A stretch of DNA of 35,920 nucleotides, from NCBI GenBank assembly GCA_964551495.1, contig CAZKCA010000006.1, forward strand, positions 1-35,920. The letters are read 5' to 3'. Below, piece by piece: positions 3,820 through 35,901 of the stretch (position 1 is its first letter; each line of letters starts with the position of its first letter). The position numbers were made by a program, and so were the translations under genes. The notes below the pieces were generated by a model that saw only the letters and a program-made list of their open reading frames with translations, had not been told where the DNA came from and did no database searches. The stretch is from an uncultured Candidatus Saccharibacteria bacterium. GTDB lineage: Bacteria > Patescibacteriota > Minisyncoccia > Phycocordibacterales > DATDWN01.

Positions 3820-4003
3820 TGACCTTATGGGGAATCTTCCGCGAGTAAAAATTTTCCGTCGAAAATTTTTCTCGTGTCCGCAGCTCGCGACCCGTCGTGT
3901 TCGACGGGTACCCCGCTCCGCTTTTCGATTCCTCACGAAAACCTATAACATAGGTTTTCTGTAGGGTCATGCAAAAATCGCCTTTCGGCGATTCTGCTTT
4001 GCA
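3820..4003 (-). repeat. tRNA-tail element Glu-2 (CGGAGC...GGTCGCGAG core type), ending in a degenerate third copy of the tRNA-Glu tail
   Basis: Minus-strand order is as follows. First a 15-bp perfect palindrome containing the tRNA tail (3961-3975 / 3998-4012). Then hairpin GAAAACCTATGTTATAGGTTTTC, then GAGGAATCGAA (inverted T-loop), then AAGCGGAGCGGGGTA. Then the CCCGTCG-AACA-CGACGGG hairpin, TCGCGAGCTGCGGACACGAG and the AAAAATTTTC-GACG-GAAAATTTTT hairpin. It ends in GATTCCCCATAAGGTCA (3820-3836, 2 mismatches to the tRNA-Glu tail). Confidence 0.75.
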
Positions 4004-4125
4004 TGACCCTACGGGGAATCGAACCTTACAGGATCAGTACCCCGATTGAGATATTTTATTTCGCAGGCTCATAAAATATCTCAATCGGGCTTCGATTCCC
4101 CAGACTTTTTTACTTCATAAAAATG
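4004..4125 (-). repeat. tRNA-tail element Glu-1 (long AT-hairpin type), ending in an exact 22-nt copy of the tRNA-Glu tail
   Basis: tgaccctacggggaatcgaacc occurs at 4004-4025 and inside tRNA-Glu at 4126-4147. The interior carries GGGGAATCGAAG (inverted T-loop), a 19-bp hairpin CCCGATTGAGATATTTTAT / ATAAAATATCTCAATCGGG, then GTACTGATCCTGTAA. Confidence 0.8.
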
Positions 4126-4197
4126 TGACCCTACGGGGAATCGAACCCCGATTACCGCCTTGAAAAGGCGATGTCCTAACCGTTAGACGATAGGGCC
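4126..4197 (-). tRNA. tRNA-Glu (anticodon TTC)
   Basis: GGCCCTA/TAGGGTC acceptor, TCGCC-TTTTCAA-GGCGG anticodon arm, CGGGG-TTCGATT-CCCCG T-arm. No CCA encoded. Confidence 0.9.
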
Positions 4198-6130: not shown

Positions 6131-6202
6131 AGTGCGATAATTATAACAGAATAAGAAATATTTCCAAAAACAAGTGACAATTAAAAAAATAACAGTGAGA
6201 AG

Positions 6203-6285
6203 CGCCAGCCGGAGACACTGTCTGAGCGAAGCGAGTTTGGCGGGAGGTCAGCTTCGAGTGCTTTATTTCACAAAAACCGAGGACG
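6203..6285. repeat. GC-rich 83-nt intergenic repeat, copy A (inverted partner at 18052-18134)
   Basis: About 88% identical by hand count to the reverse complement of 18052-18134; the first 48 nt differ at 2 positions. Lies in the trxB-ftsZ spacer. Confidence 0.85.
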
Positions 6286-6311
6286 ATGAGAAATCAATTG
6301 TTTTTGAAATT

Positions 6312-11894: not shown

Positions 11895-11945
11895 AATAGG
11901 AGAAAGTGTAATGTAAAAAATAGTAAATAAAATCTTGTTGAGACT

Positions 11946-12030
11946 CTACATATTTGGAGACTTCGCAAGCGCGACGGCGCGAGACCGAGCAAAATTTCAG
12001 CAGAAATTTATGCGTGCTCCAAATATGTAG
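11946..12030 (+). repeat. Orphan member of the tRNA-tail element family, bounded by perfect 14-bp terminal inverted repeats
   Basis: ctacatatttggag (11946-11959) pairs with ctccaaatatgtag (12017-12030). The interior GCGC-GACG-GCGC hairpin and AAAATTTC-AGCAG-AAATTT hairpin match unit Lys-B (25706-25790). No tRNA is adjacent. Confidence 0.75.
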
Positions 12031-12084
12031 TGTTGAAAAAGAGATTTTATTCCAATTTTTCTATTTTTCATTTATAATTTGCCT

Positions 12085-18021: not shown

Positions 18022-18051
18022 AAAGTTTATAAATTTTCCCTAATTTCAAAA

Positions 18052-18134
18052 CGTCCTCGATTTTTATAAAACAAAGCGCTCGTCACTGACCTCTCGCCAA
18101 ACTCGCTACGCTCAGACAGTGTCTCCGGCTGGCG
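18052..18134. repeat. GC-rich 83-nt intergenic repeat, copy B (inverted partner of 6203-6285)
   Basis: Reverse complement of copy A with about 10 mismatches. Lies directly downstream of gyrA and is followed by a T-rich run. Confidence 0.85.
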
Positions 18135-18273
18135 ATCCTCGTTTTTGTTTTAGCTAAAAATCTGCGAATGTTTTTAAATTAGGGAAAATTATTGATGAAG
18201 TTTTAAAAAATCAAGGCGAATATGTGTATTTCTTTCTTTTATATTGCAAAATAAAATAGTATTATAAATACAT

Positions 18274-20090: not shown

Positions 20091-20093
20091 TTT

Positions 20094-20522
20094 ATGAAAA
20101 AAACCTTAATACATTCATTAATAATTTTTAGCTTAGCTTTCTTTGCTTTAACTTCTGTATCATTTGCTCAATCAGGTATAGAAGGTAACCAGCCTCCAGC
20201 TACACCAAGCGAAACTTCTGGCTATAGAGGGGTCATCCCTAATTGTCAGGGAAACACTTGTACTTGGAATGATATTATTAAGACAATAGATTATCTTGTT
20301 GATTTGGCTATGGGTATTGCTCTTGTATTTTCTTCGGCAGTTATAGCTTTTGCTGGATTTAAATATATGTCTTCCGGAGACAATCCAGGCAAGAGAAAAG
20401 AGGCAAATACAATGCTTCAAAAAGTTGTTATTGGAATTGTTTTGGTTATGGGTGCTTGGGTAATAGTTAATTTAATATTTACAGCTTTAGGTGCAGATCA
20501 GTCCATAAGATTTGCAATATAA
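20094..20522 (+). CDS. VirB2/TrbC-like (T4SS-type) pilin-family small membrane protein, paralog 1 of 6
   Basis: Signal peptide ending FAQ, then two hydrophobic helices joined by the FKYMSSGDNPGKRKE loop. Confidence 0.55.
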   Translation: MKKTLIHSLIIFSLAFFALTSVSFAQSGIEGNQPPATPSETSGYRGVIPNCQGNTCTWNDIIKTIDYLVDLAMGIALVFSSAVIAFAGFKYMSSGDNPGKRKEANTMLQKVVIGIVLVMGAWVIVNLIFTALGADQSIRFAI

Positions 20523-20526
20523 AAAT

Positions 20527-20946
20527 ATGAAAAAAACTTTAATACATTCATTAATAATTTTTAGCCTAGCTTTCTTTGCTTTAACTTCTGTATCATTTGC
20601 TCAATCAGGTATAGAAGGTAACCAGCCTCCAGCTACACCGAGTACTCCGAGCAATAATACGAGTTATGATATAAAAATAACAAACCCTTTGAAGGTGGGG
20701 GATAAGCTTACGGACATAATAGTGGCTGTTTTAAATAATGTTGTTATGCCTATAGCAGCAGTGGCAGCTGTGCTCTATATAATCTTGGCTGGTTTCAAAT
20801 ACGTTTCTGCCAGAGGTAACCCTGCCAAGATACAGAGTGCTCATCAAAATCTATTATGGGCGCTAGTTGGAACTGGTATTTTGTTAGGTGCAGCTGGTAT
20901 TTCTAGGGTTTTACAAAATACAGTAAATCAGTTTTTAATAAATTAA
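20527..20946 (+). CDS. VirB2/TrbC-like pilin-family protein, paralog 2
   Basis: True start at MKKTLIHS. The first 120 nt are nearly identical to paralog 1. Helix-loop-helix GFKYVSARGNPAKIQ. Confidence 0.55.
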   Translation: MKKTLIHSLIIFSLAFFALTSVSFAQSGIEGNQPPATPSTPSNNTSYDIKITNPLKVGDKLTDIIVAVLNNVVMPIAAVAAVLYIILAGFKYVSARGNPAKIQSAHQNLLWALVGTGILLGAAGISRVLQNTVNQFLIN

Positions 20947-20951
20947 TATTT

Positions 20952-21341
20952 ATGAAATATTTATTAAAATTATCTATATTTTTAATACCATCTTTTACTT
21001 TAGCTTTTTCCTTAGGAGGAGATAGTACTTTTAAAAACGTTATTTTTGAAATTGTAAGTATACTAGAACTGGCTTTACCTCTTTTATTTGGGGGTGCCCT
21101 GATTATTTTCTTTTGGGGATTATCAAAATTTGTTATAAATTCTGACAATGAGACTGAATTAAAAAAAGGCAAAAACTATATGCTCTGGGGCATTTTGGCT
21201 TTGTTTATATTAATTTCTTACAGAACAATTGTTGGTTTGGTAGTCAGAGATTTGGAATTTGGTGATGGAAATACTATTCCTCAGCTTCCAACAGGAGGAA
21301 ATGTAGAGAGTGTTAATAGTAATATAAATTTTAATCCTTAA
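20952..21341 (+). CDS. VirB2/TrbC-like pilin-family protein, paralog 3
   Basis: Signal peptide; FFWGLSKFVINSDNETELKKGKNYMLWGILALFIL. Confidence 0.55.
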   Translation: MKYLLKLSIFLIPSFTLAFSLGGDSTFKNVIFEIVSILELALPLLFGGALIIFFWGLSKFVINSDNETELKKGKNYMLWGILALFILISYRTIVGLVVRDLEFGDGNTIPQLPTGGNVESVNSNINFNP

Positions 21342-21344
21342 GAT

Positions 21345-21728
21345 ATGAAAAAAATATATAAAAATATAATTATATTATTAGTATTGTTTCCAAGTTTTTC
21401 TTTTGCTGCTTTAGATGGTCTCAAAGGGCTTATGAGTGAGTCTTTGGGTTTGTTAAATCTAGGTATAAGGATTATTTTTGCATTAGCTTTAGTTTTATTT
21501 TTCTGGGGTCTTGTCCAATTTATAATGAAGTCAGGGGATGCTAAATTACGAGATGAAGGTAAAAAAAGGATGATCTGGGGTATAATCGCTTTGTTTGTAA
21601 TGGTTTCTATATACGGAATATTAAACTTTGTTGGAAGTTTAGTTGGCATAAATCCAAATTCATCTGGGTCTCTAGAAGTTTGTCCTCCTGGTACTATCAA
21701 TGCTGGAGGCACTGGTCCTTGTGATTAA
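21345..21728 (+). CDS. VirB2/TrbC-like pilin-family protein, paralog 4
   Basis: Signal peptide; FFWGLVQFIMKSGDAKLRDEGKKRMIWGIIALFVMVSIYG. Confidence 0.55.
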   Translation: MKKIYKNIIILLVLFPSFSFAALDGLKGLMSESLGLLNLGIRIIFALALVLFFWGLVQFIMKSGDAKLRDEGKKRMIWGIIALFVMVSIYGILNFVGSLVGINPNSSGSLEVCPPGTINAGGTGPCD

Positions 21729-21828
21729 TTATCCACATTTTCTTGTATTTTAGCCAAATTTATACTATAATTTGGAGGTAGTTATTCGGTCGTTAGTTTT
21801 ATTAAAATATTTTAATAATTATAAAATA

Positions 21829-22182
21829 ATGAAGAAATTTATTTACACTGCTTTGTCTTTGTCACCTATGTTGGCTTTGGCACAAGAAGGAAACCTTGGT
21901 GGAGTTGAAAGATTGGTTAGACAATTTGGAGATATCCTAAATAGTCTTGTTATTCCAATATTGTTTGCTATTGCTATCATTTACTTCTTCTGGGGTCTTG
22001 TAAAATACATCAAGTCTGCAGGAGATCCAAAGGCAGCAGCTGAGGGAAGATCTATAATGATCTGGGGTATAATAGCTCTAGTTGTTATGGTTTCTGTTTA
22101 TGGTCTTATAGCTTGGGTTCAAAGTGCTTTTGGAATCCAAGGTGGAGCTACACCTACTCTTCCTACAGTTCCAGGTCTATAA
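21829..22182 (+). CDS. VirB2/TrbC-like pilin-family protein, paralog 5
   Basis: Start at MKKFIYTALS (the track starts at 21772). FFWGLVKYIKSAGDPKAAAEGRSIMIWGIIALVVMVSVYG. Confidence 0.55.
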   Translation: MKKFIYTALSLSPMLALAQEGNLGGVERLVRQFGDILNSLVIPILFAIAIIYFFWGLVKYIKSAGDPKAAAEGRSIMIWGIIALVVMVSVYGLIAWVQSAFGIQGGATPTLPTVPGL

Positions 22183-23906: not shown

Positions 23907-25048
23907 TTCTTTCCTCCTTCTGTTGGTAGTCCGATTTGGACCCCTGTCCCTCCTGCTACGTATGTGGTTAGTTTACCTACTGCTTCTGCATTGATCTCTG
24001 CTACAACTGTAGCCGTAGCAAGTCTCAACGCTTCAGGGGCAGGCATACCACCTTTAACGTACATTTCCATAAGAGCGGATACTCTTCTTGTTTTAGCTTC
24101 AGCTATCTTCGCAATATATCCTCCTTCTCCATCAGCTTCAGCCAATTTTGCATTAGCTTTTTCTTTTGCGATGCGGGTTGCCTCTAGAGCCTCTTGCATT
24201 TTTTCAGCAGCCTTAGAGATTTCAGGGTCACTGATGTATAGGTGTTTTACTTTTACGCCAAGAGGTTTAAGTCTCAGGTTTAAGTCTTCCATTGCTTCAC
24301 CGAACTTTTCGGTGCCCAATTGTTTATCGGACTTTTCGCCTTTACCTTTATATGTTTCCCAGTCCATTTTAAGAACTTGGTTAGAAATAAAGGTTCCGAT
24401 GATATCGCTGATGGTCTGTAAAAAACCATCACTATATACTTCAAAGAAAGGTCTGGCATCCTCAACTTCAACAATTGCTGTGCTAAGGATATTGAACCGG
24501 ACCTGATCTTTGGTATCTAGTTCGTGATGATAGGTAGGTCTTGGAAACTCGGCATAGAGTCCGTATTTTTTTACTTTCGATGCTTTGAGTGCACTAGAAA
24601 GTCGGATTTTTTCTTGAGGAGTTTCTTCTGTGTCTTTTCTTACAACTCTGTCTATATAGACAGGTTTTACGTTCCTAAGATAGGGGAGCCCGATCCAGCG
24701 AACACCAAATGTCTTGATTAGCCAAGACTGTATAGATATTTCATTTCTAACTAGATTAGTTAGATTTTCAATTGTAACCTTAGTGTTAACCCTTTTGGGT
24801 TTAAGTTTACCATCTGGTCTTATCTCCTTACCTTTAACATTCCCTACATAATTGATTATAGGGCCGTTTTCCTCATTTCCGGCCACTATGGCTCGGATGA
24901 GGTTGGGTGTCTCATCCACAAACCCAAGACTTCGCCAGAAGCCCCATTTTTCAGAGGATTCCTGTTCCTCTGGTTTTCTGACTAGCAGTCCAGTGATAAC
25001 GATTATCACTGTTGCTATTAATGATAGAGAGGCAAAAAAGATTAACAT
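23903..25048 (-). CDS. Membrane-anchored protein with SPFH/band-7-like features (tentative)
   Basis: N-terminal TM and an Ala/Glu/Lys-rich C-terminal coiled region (EALEATRIAKEKANAKLAEADGEGGYIAKIAEAKTRR). 4-nt overlap with the downstream gene. High GC. Confidence 0.35.
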   Translation of the reverse strand: MLIFFASLSLIATVIIVITGLLVRKPEEQESSEKWGFWRSLGFVDETPNLIRAIVAGNEENGPIINYVGNVKGKEIRPDGKLKPKRVNTKVTIENLTNLVRNEISIQSWLIKTFGVRWIGLPYLRNVKPVYIDRVVRKDTEETPQEKIRLSSALKASKVKKYGLYAEFPRPTYHHELDTKDQVRFNILSTAIVEVEDARPFFEVYSDGFLQTISDIIGTFISNQVLKMDWETYKGKGEKSDKQLGTEKFGEAMEDLNLRLKPLGVKVKHLYISDPEISKAAEKMQEALEATRIAKEKANAKLAEADGEGGYIAKIAEAKTRRVSALMEMYVKGGMPAPEALRLATATVVAEINAEAVGKLTTYVAGGTGVQIGLPTEGGKK

Positions 25049-25128
25049 CTTTTCTCCTTTTCAAGATTGAATTTTCAAGGAACCGACTAGAGGTTTGACC
25101 CTAAAAGCCAGAACCTATTCCGTTATTA

Positions 25129-25157
25129 ATTCTATCACAAAAAGGCTAAAAAGTCAA
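25129..25157 (-). promoter_or_regulatory. Sigma70-like promoter for the GC-rich two-gene operon
   Basis: On the minus strand: TTGACT, 17-nt spacer, TAGAAT. AAGGAG RBS before the ATG at 25048. Confidence 0.55.
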
Positions 25158-25213
25158 GCTAAATTTTAATAAAAAAACAGCTCAACAAAGAGATATTTTT
25201 AATATTTTTATTA

Positions 25214-25394
25214 GTGGGCAAGGGGAGACTTGCCTCCAAATTTTCTTTCGTCGTCACTCAAGAAAATTCTAGGCGCCAGATTTCCGACAAGCTCTGTTGA
25301 GCTTGTAGACCGGAAATCTGTTCGAGTCACCTCACACAAAAATATATTTTTGCTATTGCTCCGACGAAAAAACCGGCTTTCGCCGATTTTCGTG
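25214..25394 (-). repeat. tRNA-tail element Leu-TAG (Leu type), ending in a 17-nt copy of the tRNA-Leu(TAG) tail
   Basis: gtgggcaaggggagact occurs at 25214-25230 and 25394-25410. Minus-strand order is as follows. Hairpin+U-tract, then GGTGACTCGAAC (inverted T-loop). Then a nested hairpin AGATTTCCG[GTCT ACAAGCTC-AACA-GAGCTTGT]CGGAAATCT and GGCGCCTAG. Then the AATTTTCTT-GAGTGACGACGA-AAGAAAATT hairpin, then the tail copy. Confidence 0.8.
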
Positions 25395-25476
25395 TGGGCA
25401 AGGGGAGACTCGAACTCCCAAGCCGTGAGGCACTAGTTCCTAAGACTAGCGCGTATACCAATTCCGCCACTTGCCC
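25395..25476 (-). tRNA. tRNA-Leu (anticodon TAG), class II long variable arm
   Basis: GGGCAAG/CTTGCCC acceptor, CTAGT-CTTAGGA-ACTAG anticodon arm, GGGAG-TTCGAGT-CTCCC T-arm. No CCA encoded. Confidence 0.9.
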
Positions 25477-25529
25477 AATGATTTATACTTTATAATATTT
25501 TTTTAGAAAAAGAAAGAGGGGATTTTTTT

Positions 25530-25705
25530 GAATCATGTGGTCAGGAATAAAAAAGGATTCTTCCGTGAGTAAAACTTTACTGTCCGCCTTGTTGTCGAGA
25601 CAGGTCGCAAAATTTTCTCGTGTCCGCAGCTCGCGACCAAGTCTGCTGACTTGGTACCCGCTCCGGTCTGCACATGTAAGAAAAAATCTGGAGCAGTCCA
25701 GATTT
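25530..25705 (-). repeat. tRNA-tail element unit Lys-A (distal), including its hairpin/U-tract module
   Basis: The core GACCGGAGCGGGTACCAAGTCAGCAGACTTGGTCGCGAG is shared with the Trp element. It ends ATTCCTGACC + ACATGATTC. The hairpin at 25681-25705 is identical to 26004-26028 (25 nt). Confidence 0.75.
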
Positions 25706-25815
25706 GAATCGTGTGGTCACAAATAAATTTCTGCTGAAATTTTTCGCGACCCCGGCTTGGCCCGTCGGCCTGCGCCTTGCACATGTAAACAAAAACAGCA
25801 TAACATGCTGTTTTT
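25706..25815 (-). repeat. tRNA-tail element unit Lys-B with its hairpin module
   Basis: ACATGTGCAAGGCGCAG, a GGCC-GACG-GGCC hairpin, GGGGTCGCG, an AAATTTC-AGCAG-AAATTT hairpin, then ATTTGTGACC + ACACGATTC. Preceded by the hairpin AACAGCAT-gtta-TGCTGTT plus T-run. Confidence 0.75.
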
Positions 25816-25894
25816 GAATCATGTGCACCCAGCAGGAATTTCTCCTACAATTTTCTTTCGTCGTCACTCAAGAAAATTCTAGGCGCCAGATTTT
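25816..25894 (-). repeat. tRNA-tail element unit Lys-C (truncated Leu-type unit), ending in a 19-nt exact copy of the tRNA-Lys tail
   Basis: 25819-25837 equals 26035-26053. The 45-nt block aattttctttcgtcgtcactcaagaaaattctaggcgccagattt is identical to the Leu-TAG element. Confidence 0.8.
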
Positions 25895-26029
25895 AATCTT
25901 TGTGGTCACAGATAATTTCCTCGTCGTCACTCGGAAATTTCCGCGACCCCGTCTCGCTTGTTTTGCTTGGTAGCAAAACATAGCTCCGCCTTGCACATGT
26001 ACTAAAAAATCTGGAGCAGTCCAGATTTT
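25895..26029 (-). repeat. tRNA-tail element unit Lys-D (proximal), including its hairpin/U-tract module
   Basis: The hairpin AAAATCTGGACTGCTCCAGATTTTTT follows tRNA-Lys. Then ACATGTGCAAGGCGGAGC, a GTTTTGCT-ACCA-AGCAAAAC hairpin and GCGAGACGGGGTCGCGG. Then an AATTTCC-GAGTGACGACGA-GGAAATT hairpin and ATCTGTGACC + ACAAAGATT. Confidence 0.75.
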
Positions 26030-26039
26030 ATTAGTCATG

Positions 26040-26112
26040 TGCACCCAGCAGGATTCGAACCTGCGACCATCTCCTTAAGAGGGAGTTGCTCTACCACCTG
26101 AGCTATGGATGC
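26040..26112 (-). tRNA. tRNA-Lys (anticodon CTT)
   Basis: GCATCCA/TGGGTGC acceptor, ACTCC-CTCTTAA-GGAGA anticodon arm, GCAGG-TTCGAAT-CCTGC T-arm. No CCA encoded. Confidence 0.9.
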
Positions 26113-26115
26113 GTA

Positions 26116-26263
26116 TGTGCTCGGAGTGGGAATCTCCCTCGAAATTTTTTCGTCGCCACTCAAAAATTTCTGGGCACCGGTTTGTCGACAAGCCCTGTTG
26201 GGCTCGTAGACCGACAAACCGTTCGATTCTCACGCACAAAGCTTTGCTTTGTTTCCGTGGCTG
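26116..26263 (-). repeat. tRNA-tail element Leu-TAA (Leu type), ending in a 19-nt copy of the tRNA-Leu(TAA) tail
   Basis: tgtgctcggagtgggaatc occurs at 26116-26134 and 26262-26280. Same module order as the Leu-TAG element, with compensated stem changes. The distal tail copy lies 3 nt from the 5' end of tRNA-Lys. Confidence 0.8.
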
Positions 26264-26345
26264 TGCTCGGAGTGGGAATCGAACCCACATCCCTTTCGGG
26301 ACAACATTTTAAGTGTTGCGTGTATACCAGTTCCACCATCCGAGC
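26264..26345 (-). tRNA. tRNA-Leu (anticodon TAA), class II
   Basis: GCTCGGA/TCCGAGC acceptor, CAACA-CTTAAAA-TGTTG anticodon arm, long variable arm, GTGGG-TTCGATT-CCCAC T-arm. Confidence 0.9.
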
Positions 26346-26346
26346 A

Positions 26347-26826
26347 TTAAATATTTTTACCAATATTTTTTCCTCTATGTGTAGGTTGAAGACTATGACA
26401 GTTTGGACACAAAATCCTCAAATTTTCTAGTCTATTATCGTACCTATTACCATTTACGTGGTCTAGTTCTAAAGGAATTCTACCGTCTGTCGATATTTTA
26501 GCCCAACCACATTGTTCACATTTTGGCTCTTTTAGTTTAGCTGAAAAAAGTCTTTTTTTCAACTTAAAACTCTGATATGTACTTTTTGAAACTAGAATTT
26601 TATAAAGTGGTATTATTGGATTTTCTCCAAATTTCATACCCTTATTCCATGTCATTCCAGTAAAATGAGAAGTATCTAGGTTATTTTGTTTTACGTATTT
26701 CTTAACTTGTTCGTAGTTTCCACCAGTAGGTTTCAGTCCTAAAAGTTTTATAACATTTCTAATACTTTTAGATTTTTTAACTGCCTTTATGAGCTGATCA
26801 TCTGACCATTTTCTAATTCCACCCAT
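26347..26826 (-). CDS. Free-standing HNH endonuclease (homing-endonuclease-like) with an N-terminal HTH-like domain
   Basis: CEQCGW...LELDHVNGNRYDNRLENLRILCPNCH is the zinc-bound HNH motif. The stop codon lies 1 nt from the tRNA-Leu(TAA) 5' end. Confidence 0.8.
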   Translation of the reverse strand: MGGIRKWSDDQLIKAVKKSKSIRNVIKLLGLKPTGGNYEQVKKYVKQNNLDTSHFTGMTWNKGMKFGENPIIPLYKILVSKSTYQSFKLKKRLFSAKLKEPKCEQCGWAKISTDGRIPLELDHVNGNRYDNRLENLRILCPNCHSLQPTHRGKNIGKNI

Positions 26827-34283: not shown

Positions 34284-34446
34284 CAAAATAATTCCCGTAA
34301 GGGAATTTTTTGATTGACGCCGGAAGTAAACCTCTGGGAGAGGTTTACGTTAGGATTCGAAAACCTGTGATAACTTTTTGTGCGAGTAGCAACAAAAAGT
34401 AGAACAGGTGTACCGTTCATGTAATGAAAGAATCCTTCCCGGCGCA
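34284..34446 (+). repeat. tRNA-tail element Tyr (long AT-hairpin type), ending in a 17-nt copy of the tRNA-Tyr tail
   Basis: gaatccttcccggcgca occurs at 34267-34283 and 34430-34446. The interior starts with the hairpin AATTCCC-gtaa-GGGAATT plus T-run. Next comes an inverted tail copy, TGACGCCGGAAG-[hairpin]-GTTAGGATTCGAA. Then a long hairpin AACCTGT...ACAGGT and GTACCGTTCATGTAATGAAA. Confidence 0.8.
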
Positions 34447-35690: not shown

Positions 35691-35830
35691 TTTGCGGGAG
35701 ATGGAGGAATCGGTCAGGAATATTTTTTTCGTCGTCACTCGAAAAATTTCCCGACCCGGACTCGCGACCAAGTCTGCTGACTTGGTACCCGCTCCGTCTT
35801 TCGATTCCAAAGATAAAACCTTTGGTTTTG
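35691..35830 (-). repeat. tRNA-tail element Trp (CGGAGC...GGTCGCGAG core type), ending in a 22-nt exact copy of the tRNA-Trp tail
   Basis: tttgcgggagatggaggaatcg occurs at 35691-35712 and 35827-35848. Minus-strand order is as follows. Hairpin CCAAAG-gttttat-CTTTGG, then GGAATCGAA (inverted T-loop) and AGACGGAGCGGGTA. Then a CCAAGTC-AGCA-GACTTGG hairpin, TCGCGAGTCCGGGTCGGG, and a hairpin with loop GAGTGACGACGA. Then ATTCCTGACC and the tail copy. Confidence 0.8.
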
Positions 35831-35901
35831 CGGGAGATGGAGGAATCGAACCCCCGACAACGGTTTTGGAGACCGTTGTTATACCACTTAACTAATCTCC
35901 C
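35831..35901 (-). tRNA. tRNA-Trp (anticodon CCA)
   Basis: GGGAGAT/ATCTCCC acceptor, ACGGT-CTCCAAA-ACCGT anticodon arm, GGGGG-TTCGATT-CCTCC T-arm, discriminator G. No CCA encoded. Confidence 0.9.

Follow-up and report, generated by a model that had tools for sequence, protein, structure and literature searches.

The non-coding tail behind the tRNA-Leu(TAA) gene on a 35,920-nt contig of an uncultured Candidatus Saccharibacteria bacterium (GenBank assembly GCA_964551495.1, contig CAZKCA010000006.1; the whole contig stretch is called the window below) is a copy of a modular, protein-less element; the family of such elements is apparently undescribed, and its members lie directly behind the tRNA and transfer-messenger RNA (tmRNA) genes of small-genome bacteria resembling the Candidate Phyla Radiation (CPR). 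The elements are about 100-180 nts long and all copies have the same layout, in which the 3′ end of the intact tRNA (T1) is followed by a hairpin (X), an inverted copy of the neighbouring tRNA's 3′ end (T′), a hairpin core and a direct copy of the tRNA 3′ end (T2). Base pairs of the core covary across larger alignments, which supports selection on a folded single strand, either RNA or single-stranded DNA. The copies of the tRNA end show the pattern left by an integration that replaces the 3′ end of a tRNA gene and displaces the original one. The reading preferred here, to which an about even chance is given, is that of mobile DNA that is non-autonomous and site-specific and is recognised in the form of a folded single strand.

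Covariation and the folded strand

The tRNA-Leu(TAA) tail (26116-26262) was compared with the tRNA-Leu(TAG) tail of the same window (25214-25393). An initial annotation had proposed that compensatory differences between these two tails indicate selection on structure, and all the stems that it quoted are present in the sequence with the pair counts that it gave. In the tRNA sense, the outer stem reads CGGTTTGTCG/CGACAAACCG in Leu-TAA (26212-26221 and 26178-26187) and CAGATTTCCG/CGGAAATCTG in Leu-TAG (25311-25320 and 25277-25286), with 4 of 9 pairs different and all four compensated. The inner hairpin, ACGAGCCC-AACA-GGGCTTGT (26188-26207) in the former and ACAAGCTC-AACA-GAGCTTGT (25287-25306) in the latter, differs by one compensated pair and by one G.T pair that is possible only on the tRNA-sense strand. 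The AT-rich stem (AT stem) again differs at 4 of 9 pairs, all compensated, around the loop GAGTG(A/G)CGACGA, a 12-nt motif found five times in the window for an expectation of 0.03. The tetraloop hairpins of a second core type, the CGGAGC type, also lie where they had been described: CCAAGTC-AGCA-GACTTGG in the Trp tail (35761-35796) and the Lys tail (25630-25665), and CCCGTCG-AACA-CGACGGG in the Glu tail (3884-3920). Folding z-scores of the sense strand relative to shuffled sequences were -6.1 for the Leu-TAA element, -6.5 for the 100-nt core of the Leu-TAG element and -4.0 for the Trp element. The antisense strands fold almost equally well (-5.2, -6.1 and -4.5, respectively), hence energy alone picks no strand.

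Further copies were collected with sequence patterns. A Leu-type pattern applied to genome contigs was too strict and returned two real copies along with four chance matches; the two real copies lie in GTDB genomes, at loci L123, labelled Saccharibacteria, and L127, labelled Paceibacterota. A pattern for the AT-stem hairpin, which fixed part of the AT stem, identified at least 120 loci in a metagenome scan, nearly all of them real elements. Among 11 distinct copies of the Leu type, all three helices are kept and several positions show three or four pair types. In these copies 97.6% of the cells are paired, as compared to 87.9% in shuffles and 34-57% with slid partners, both sides have changed at 10 pairs (4.5 in shuffles), and the covariation score of 0.278 (0.095 in shuffles) was reached by none of 500 shuffles. 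Covariation is also found in the CGGAGC type, for which RNAalifold identified compensatory changes in 22 of 30 pairs across 65 cores. With a refined structure of four helices, 92.7% of the cells of these 65 copies are paired (73.8% in shuffles), double changes occur in 443 cells rather than 143, and the score of 0.536, compared to 0.195, was again reached by 0 of 500 shuffles. Uncompensated changes, the result that the initial annotation had named as refuting its claim, are therefore not what these larger alignments of 11 and 65 copies show, and selection on a folded single strand is supported.

The two core types are related. A covariance model built from CGGAGC-type copies only recovers the Leu-TAA element at 51.6 bits and the Leu-TAG element at 44.9 bits, and aligns the Leu outer stem with helix P2a and the Leu inner hairpin with helix P2, so that the Leu and CGGAGC types are homologous. 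In addition, 36 model matches whose sequences lack the search pattern show further covariation, including an exchange of U-A for C-G inside the 12-nt tip; the tip thus reads as tandem G.A pairs, two base pairs and a GNCG tetraloop.

The initial annotation had also suggested a slight preference for an RNA on the tRNA strand. For P3/P4, the hairpin at the right junction, the preference is far stronger than slight: in the CGGAGC-type copies, 102 cells are G.U or U.G and only 4 are A.C or C.A, with one particular G.U pair present in 57 of the 65 copies. The G.T pair of the inner hairpin is similarly present in 9 of 11 Leu-type copies. For P1, P2a and P2, by contrast, no strand bias was found (23 G.U compared to 20 A.C). 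Because of the ratio of 102 to 4, at least the right-junction hairpin is selected as a fold of the tRNA-sense strand. Judged from the sequence, the folded strand is the tRNA-sense one, at least for this hairpin, and both RNA and DNA are compatible with it.

This strand test disfavours the proposal that the hairpins are ordinary double-stranded palindromes, that is, bidirectional intrinsic terminators or sites for dimeric proteins that came to lie after tRNA genes by chance. The similar folding energy of both strands, the terminator-like X hairpins and the unbiased wobble pairs in P1/P2 (23 and 20) would be expected of such palindromes. However, the wobble pairs of P3/P4 would be mismatches on the other strand and irrelevant in a duplex, and the loops conserved at the hairpin tips (GAGUGNCGACGA, ACUGCU and C-ANNA-G) are asymmetric. 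Moreover, a GC-rich hairpin followed by a U run, as in an intrinsic terminator, was found for X in 41 of 64 first-position copies and for the X of Leu-TAG, but no U run follows the outer and inner stems, P3/P4 or the Leu-TAA X hairpin. Since the core hairpins lack U runs and palindromes would leave the tRNA-end duplications unexplained, this proposal is considered highly improbable.

Targets and copies of the tRNA end

The family is tied to tRNA genes. It was found in at least 120 metagenome loci and two GTDB genomes (labelled Saccharibacteria and Paceibacterota), and the covariance model matched 139 copies in 640 kb of metagenome loci. A tRNA gene lies on the same strand within 800 nts upstream of 95 of these copies, while 19 are at contig edges and several of the remaining 25 follow tmRNA genes, as confirmed by ARAGORN for L209 and L218. 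Only one of the 139 copies has a nearby tRNA on the opposite strand; otherwise the elements are in tRNA orientation. The tRNAs that carry elements belong to 17 anticodon classes. A single tRNA can be followed by 0 to 4 elements. Tandem arrays are common, as in the Lys and Glu tails of the window and at L128, L167 and L181, and so are hybrid combinations of modules, as at L190 and L231.

Two classes of junction can be told apart. In class i, T2 extends from T-loop position 56/57 to the discriminator base followed by CA, a repeat of about 17-22 nts that is often perfect. In class ii, the repeat is limited to ...CACA and some trailer sequence, the copies following ...GCAC(A) and ending in GACCACA. 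Direct T1/T2 repeats are present in the window for the Trp, Leu-TAA, Leu-TAG, Glu, Lys and Tyr tRNAs, as well as at many other loci. The inverted copy T′ is often split at the junction of acceptor and T-stem by a hairpin with an ACUGCU loop.

A few placements depart from this scheme. One copy follows the end of a coding sequence (L143). Another (L168, 2298-2398, + strand) lies behind the antisense of the 5′ end of a tRNA-Ala gene (...ACGGGCCC, then AAA). This sequence is a mimic of an acceptor 3′ strand, and such a placement suggests that recognition of the target does not go through tRNA transcription but takes place at the level of DNA or of a hairpin. Of the copies behind tRNA genes, at least four are wedged between two tRNAs of the same strand, 4-25 nts from the next tRNA, and their X hairpins are without a U run.

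The copies of the tRNA end differ from each other in an informative manner. About 22 Watson-Crick pairs can be formed per element between T′ and the tRNA end, and the mean score of T′ is 9.0 with its cognate tRNA, compared to 5.5 with non-cognate ones. Among the 24 informative positions at which T1 and T2 are not the same, T′ is complementary to T1 at 23 and to T2 at none. The T2 base at 18 of these 23 would disrupt its pairing with T′, and at the other 5 a wobble pair would result. Hence the changes in T2 are uncompensated and T2 behaves as a decaying relic. RNAalifold predicted an RNA helix that would close the element by pairing T′ with T2, but in view of these changes this helix is not maintained. 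Mismatches between T and T′ show no wobble bias either, as expected of footprints rather than of maintained RNA helices. Of the tRNA-end copies in the Glu array, the distal one has decayed further. The decay of T2, together with a T′ that tracks T1, is the pattern that an integration leaves when it gives the tRNA a new 3′ end and pushes the original one aside. These duplications, on which the initial annotation was silent, point to an origin as mobile DNA.

Direct repeats of a tRNA 3′ end starting in the T-loop are reportedly the classic signature of tyrosine-integrase islands (Williams 2002), hence the tails could be attachment-site scars, i.e., attL/attR remnants of integrase-bearing islands or prophages, in which the hairpins would be binding sites of the integrase or of accessory proteins. 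Serial repeats also have a precedent, as PMC3146451 describes serial direct repeats behind ssrA in Dehalococcoides that result from successive island integrations. Yet the elements are uniformly compact with a constant order of modules, and at no locus was a larger, gene-bearing version found between T1 and T2. Searches of 2.9 million viral contigs, 50,697 phage records and 72,556 plasmids gave no match, and random deletion would not leave hairpins that covary and are strand-specific. Scars of this kind are thus quite improbable.

Mobile DNA, host RNA and known systems

If the elements are mobile DNA recognised as a folded strand, they would enter tRNA or tmRNA genes, in class i at the T-loop and in class ii at the extreme 3′ end. 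The incoming element would supply a replacement 3′ end (T1), and often a terminator too, so that the tRNA would stay intact, and the displaced original end would stay behind as T2. The conserved fold would be the single-stranded form recognised by an enzyme encoded elsewhere, and a T1-X-T′ hairpin in that single strand would restore the target site as a duplex. Selection on the fold during propagation of the family would then account for the compensatory differences between the two Leu elements.

This reading is favoured because of the tRNA-end duplications, the tandem arrays, a patchy occupancy, the replacement of modules and the target mimics located outside tRNA transcription units. It is further favoured because a terminator precedes the core in 41 of the 64 first-position copies and because neither an open reading frame (ORF) nor a linked protein family was found. 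Patchy occupancy is illustrated by L134, which resembles the window in the adjacency of an HNH gene and tRNA-Leu(TAA) and in the order of tRNA-Lys(CTT) then tRNA-Leu(TAG), and which has no element behind tRNA-Leu(TAG). Replacement of a module was seen between L197 (1090-1440) and L235 (4560-4830), located behind the same tRNA-Ile, where L197 has an entire additional short element in place of the X hairpin of L235.

The HNH endonuclease ORF of the window (Pfam HNH_3/HNH, 26347-26826, - strand) lies between tRNA-Cys and tRNA-Leu(TAA). Its homologue in L134 (3275-3805, 63% amino-acid identity) also abuts tRNA-Leu(TAA). Among the loci it recurs in L134 only, hence HNH was ruled out as a general partner of the elements.

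Several observations weigh against mobility. No recombinase or transposase is encoded in the window and none is recurrent in 795 kb of flanks; likewise, clustering of 1,075 flanking ORFs yielded only housekeeping families, and no ORF fits inside an element. No excised form, circle junction or empty site in a near-identical strain was seen among the Logan contigs of the same population, which are short and end in or beside the repeats. The cores are also conserved well above their flanks, with 104 of 106 positions identical between L197 and L235 for flanks of about 83%, 100 of 100 between L171 and L185 for flanks of 90-93%, and 98% between L196 and L164 for flanks of 75-79%. A function selected by the host fits this conservation as well as does the possibility that one active lineage recently homed to that site in both genomes. 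In addition, the near-invariant G.U pair and the tandem G.A motifs are typical of functional RNA, and the copies wedged inside tRNA operons are almost certainly transcribed. Finally, cores of one subtype whose T′ and T2 are matched to many different tRNAs need either many specialised lineages, their cores evened out by gene conversion, or a copying of the target at insertion.

These points lead to the main alternative, namely that the elements are a structured non-coding RNA co-transcribed with the tRNA and serving a host function, such as pre-tRNA 3′ processing, operon punctuation or partnership with a conserved protein, the tRNA-end copies being relics of its spread. This is possible, though doubtful. 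The strict co-orientation with tRNAs, the location of copies within tRNA operons 4-25 nts from the next tRNA with X hairpins devoid of a U run, the strong covariation and the wobble pairs confined to the sense strand, including the G.U pair of 57 in 65 copies, are all in line with a host RNA. So is the maintenance of the unpaired motifs GAAAG and CGGAG/CGAG and of the GNCG tip between genomes labelled Saccharibacteria and Paceibacterota, and a core conserved like the tRNA itself, with flanks down to 75-84%. On the other hand, a terminator-like hairpin with a U run stands before the core in those 41 of 64 copies, only some tRNAs are occupied and the occupied set differs between genomes with a common local gene order. 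The copy number varies from 0 to 4 per tRNA, and some copies follow an antisense tRNA 5′ end or a coding sequence, or lie in a divergent promoter region. Moreover, the would-be closing helix T′/T2 is not maintained, and no Rfam family matches the elements.

A more specific form of the mobile reading, which is speculative and rather unlikely, would be that of a protein-less mini-element moving as a folded single strand whose long T1-X-T′ hairpin mimics the double-stranded 3′ end of the target tRNA gene, and which would be integrated by a recombinase or transposase encoded elsewhere, possibly a host housekeeping enzyme. Its target copies would be templated at insertion or serve as a long pairing guide, so that the element could be retargeted to any tRNA. 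Copying of a target sequence at insertion would be a new mechanism.

Among known systems, the elements work most like tRNA-targeting integrative elements, by analogy with the regeneration of the gene and the displacement of its 3′ end. As in islands and prophages that use tyrosine integrases to enter tRNA or tmRNA genes, the gene is regenerated, a displaced copy of its 3′ end from T-loop to discriminator lies downstream, and serial arrays occur. A direct repeat of the tRNA 3′ end does flank the insert, the intact tRNA lying to one side, but no integrase lies inside, as only about 100-160 nts separate T1 from T2 and no ORF fits there. The elements are 100-fold smaller than such islands and without any gene, and they differ in having an inverted copy of the target and covarying, strand-specific hairpins.

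Strand-specific hairpins are reminiscent of the ends of the IS200/IS605 insertion sequences (IS), of the palindrome-associated transposable elements (PATEs), a type of miniature inverted-repeat transposable element (MITE), and of the repetitive extragenic palindromes (REP) with their associated tyrosine transposases (RAYT). All of these are non-coding, hairpin-based and inserted beside a short fixed target, and they also resemble the elements in lacking classical terminal inverted repeats, in their high copy number and in their tandem clusters. Like the IS200/IS605 type, the elements have subterminal hairpins (X/Xh on the left, P3/P4 at the right junction), a strand bias and no fixed terminal inverted repeats. 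The class ii ends, ...GCAC(A) and GACCACA, are suggestive of insertion at a fixed target, whereas class i has long target copies instead. In IS608, an internal sequence complementary to the flank at the cleavage site similarly pairs as a guide, but it is 4 nts long, compared to 5-27 tRNA-specific nts in the elements. Unlike in the IS200/IS605 family, a long stretch of the target is present as a direct copy, and a Y1 HUH transposase was not seen. The hairpins are not known to share sequence with IS or REP ends.

Integron attC sites and the attP of CTX-phi are alike in that structure is kept over sequence, one strand is active, an imperfect hairpin rebuilds a duplex site and arrays form at a fixed site. 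The likeness is a structural analogy only, which concerns the strand-specific fold and the putative rebuilding of a target duplex by the T1-X-T′ hairpin; the elements target tRNA genes, not attI or dif, and have the extra conserved hairpins P2 and P3/P4. Classical MITEs, for their part, are also short, non-autonomous, multi-copy, structure-rich and intergenic. In the elements, however, location and orientation are tied to tRNA genes, the inverted repeats copy the local target and there is neither a family-constant terminal inverted repeat nor a short fixed target-site duplication. The inverted repeats differ again at a copy away from tRNA genes (11916-12060), and the elements are not classical MITEs because these repeats are not constant across the family.

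Other candidates were rejected. A primer-binding site of the retroviral type does not fit, as T′ complements the genomic discriminator followed by CA and not a mature tRNA ending in CCA. TIGR arrays (with tandem, interspaced guide RNAs), which are Tas-associated, consist of alternating 8-12-nt repeats and 9-nt spacers beside a Nop-domain gene (PMC12045711); units of 100-180 nts do not fit such an array and no Nop-domain gene was found. The bridge RNAs of IS110 do not fit in unit size and architecture, and no core motif of the hammerhead or other small ribozymes was recognised by eye. A viral origin was rejected since scans of IMG/VR gave either nothing or chance matches in coding DNA only, and neither the phages of INPHARED nor the plasmids of PLSDB contained a match. 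In Rfam 15, no family other than tRNA reached the gathering threshold, and a permissive E-value search of 25000-26400 returned only sub-threshold chance matches. No description of the element family was found in full-text literature searches.

Elements and other repeats of the window

The window has a GC content of ~35% and encodes, among others, TsaD, FtsZ, FtsA, GyrA, ClpB, a short IF2, YbeY and RbfA. Taken with the genomes in which relatives of the element were found, these features suggest that it comes from a small-genome bacterium of the CPR/Patescibacteria type. ARAGORN identified eight tRNA genes, which are also the only Rfam matches at the gathering threshold. A hairpin-rich non-coding tail of 110-560 nts in tRNA orientation lies behind six of the eight (Trp, Leu-TAA, Lys, Leu-TAG, Glu and Tyr), and core segments of 36 and 45 nts are identical between different tails. 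None of the eight genes encodes CCA; in most, the discriminator is followed by CA, which is included in the repeated T block.

The Leu-TAA element follows tRNA-Leu(TAA) (26263-26345, - strand; 60 bits with the Rfam tRNA model) and is read on the same strand. T1 (GATTCCCACTCCGAGCACA, 26262-26280) consists of the last 18 nts of the tRNA and one flanking base. The left arm (26221-26262) contains a small hairpin without a U run, ACAAAGC-AAA-GCTTTGT (26236-26252), and T′, GTGCGTGAG-AATCGAAC (26221-26237), in which the acceptor 3′ strand and T-loop are repeated in inverted, degenerate form and GAATCGAA is the reverse complement of the T-loop sequence TTCGATTC. The covarying region that follows (26178-26221) is composed of the outer stem of 10 bp, a GTCT internal loop and the inner hairpin of 8 bp with its C-AACA-G loop. 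The P3/P4 hairpin (26136-26174) has a base of CCC-A-G / C-GA-GGG, an AT stem of 9 bp and the 12-nt tip GAGUGGCGACGA (26150-26161), read as described above. T2 (26116-26134) copies the tRNA 3′ end from T-loop position 57 to the discriminator and CA; it is identical to T1 at 19 of 19 positions, and tRNA-Lys begins 3 nts beyond it.

The Leu-TAG element (25214-25393, - strand; model match of 44.9 bits) follows T1 (25394-25410), which is part of the tRNA (25394-25476). It is made of a terminator-like X hairpin with a U run (25367-25390), T′ (25320-25337), the outer stem and inner hairpin (25277-25320), P3/P4 (25232-25274) and T2 (25214-25230). Between the two Leu elements, the tail of tRNA-Lys(CTT) (25500-26038, - strand) is an array with at least three cores of the CGGAGC or short type (25897-26002, 25708-25788 and 25532-25679), a fragment of a Leu-type P4 (25844-25883) and an internal copy of the tRNA-Lys 3′ end (25819-25837). 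The tRNA-Trp element (35691-35829, - strand) is of the CGGAGC type, with its core at 35712-35808 and a model match of 103 bits. Its T2 (35691-35711) is identical at 21 of 21 positions to T1 (35827-35847) and is followed by a canonical terminator.

A third core type, made of a long hairpin, then GGTGTAC, then a hairpin with a UGUAA loop, lies behind tRNA-Glu (4021-4124, -) and tRNA-Tyr (34285-34446, +), and also in L123 at about 3820-3905; the logic of the flanking T′ and T2 is the same, and its hybrids with the P3/P4 hairpin are those of L190 and L231. The tRNA-Glu tail (3820-4124, - strand) holds two tandem elements, Glu-1 with this other core type and Glu-2 of the CGGAGC type (3833-3934), and three copies of the tRNA end, located within the tRNA (4126-4142), at 4004-4020 (perfect) and at 3820-3836 (two mismatches). 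The tRNA-Tyr element includes a terminator, inverted copies of the acceptor strand and T-loop, the long hairpin and the UGUAA hairpin, and ends with T2 (34430-34446, +). The family member away from tRNA genes (11916-12060, + strand; 19.7 bits, E 0.005) is located between the divergent lepB and pth genes and consists of a minimal core (about 11960-12016) between the arms of an imperfect inverted repeat of 44 nts.

Two other repeats were observed in the window. A 109-nt repeat occurs in opposite orientation at 6186-6294, after trxB, and at 18043-18151, after gyrA, the two copies being 83% complementary. The second copy is flanked by a 34-nt inverted repeat (18032-18065 and 18157-18190), and this may be another family of hairpin-flanked repeats. 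A 117-nt direct repeat (20093-20209 and 20526-20642, 97% identity) corresponds to the common 5′ parts, covering the signal-peptide region, of two adjacent ORFs for small membrane proteins, and several similar small hydrophobic ORFs then follow at 20952-22182.

Elements of this kind are invisible to gene-based annotation and break short-read assemblies. If the preferred reading of mobile DNA recognised as a folded strand is true, CPR bacteria (Patescibacteria), whose tiny genomes are usually regarded as poor in mobile DNA, carry dense and widespread tRNA-homing mini-elements, and the choice of target would apparently be written in a complementarity of up to about 25 nts to the tRNA end. If the elements are a host RNA instead, they would represent a new and widespread class of structured RNA on the tRNA transcripts of a major bacterial radiation. 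Either way, this is a family with clear covariation support and no entry in Rfam 15.

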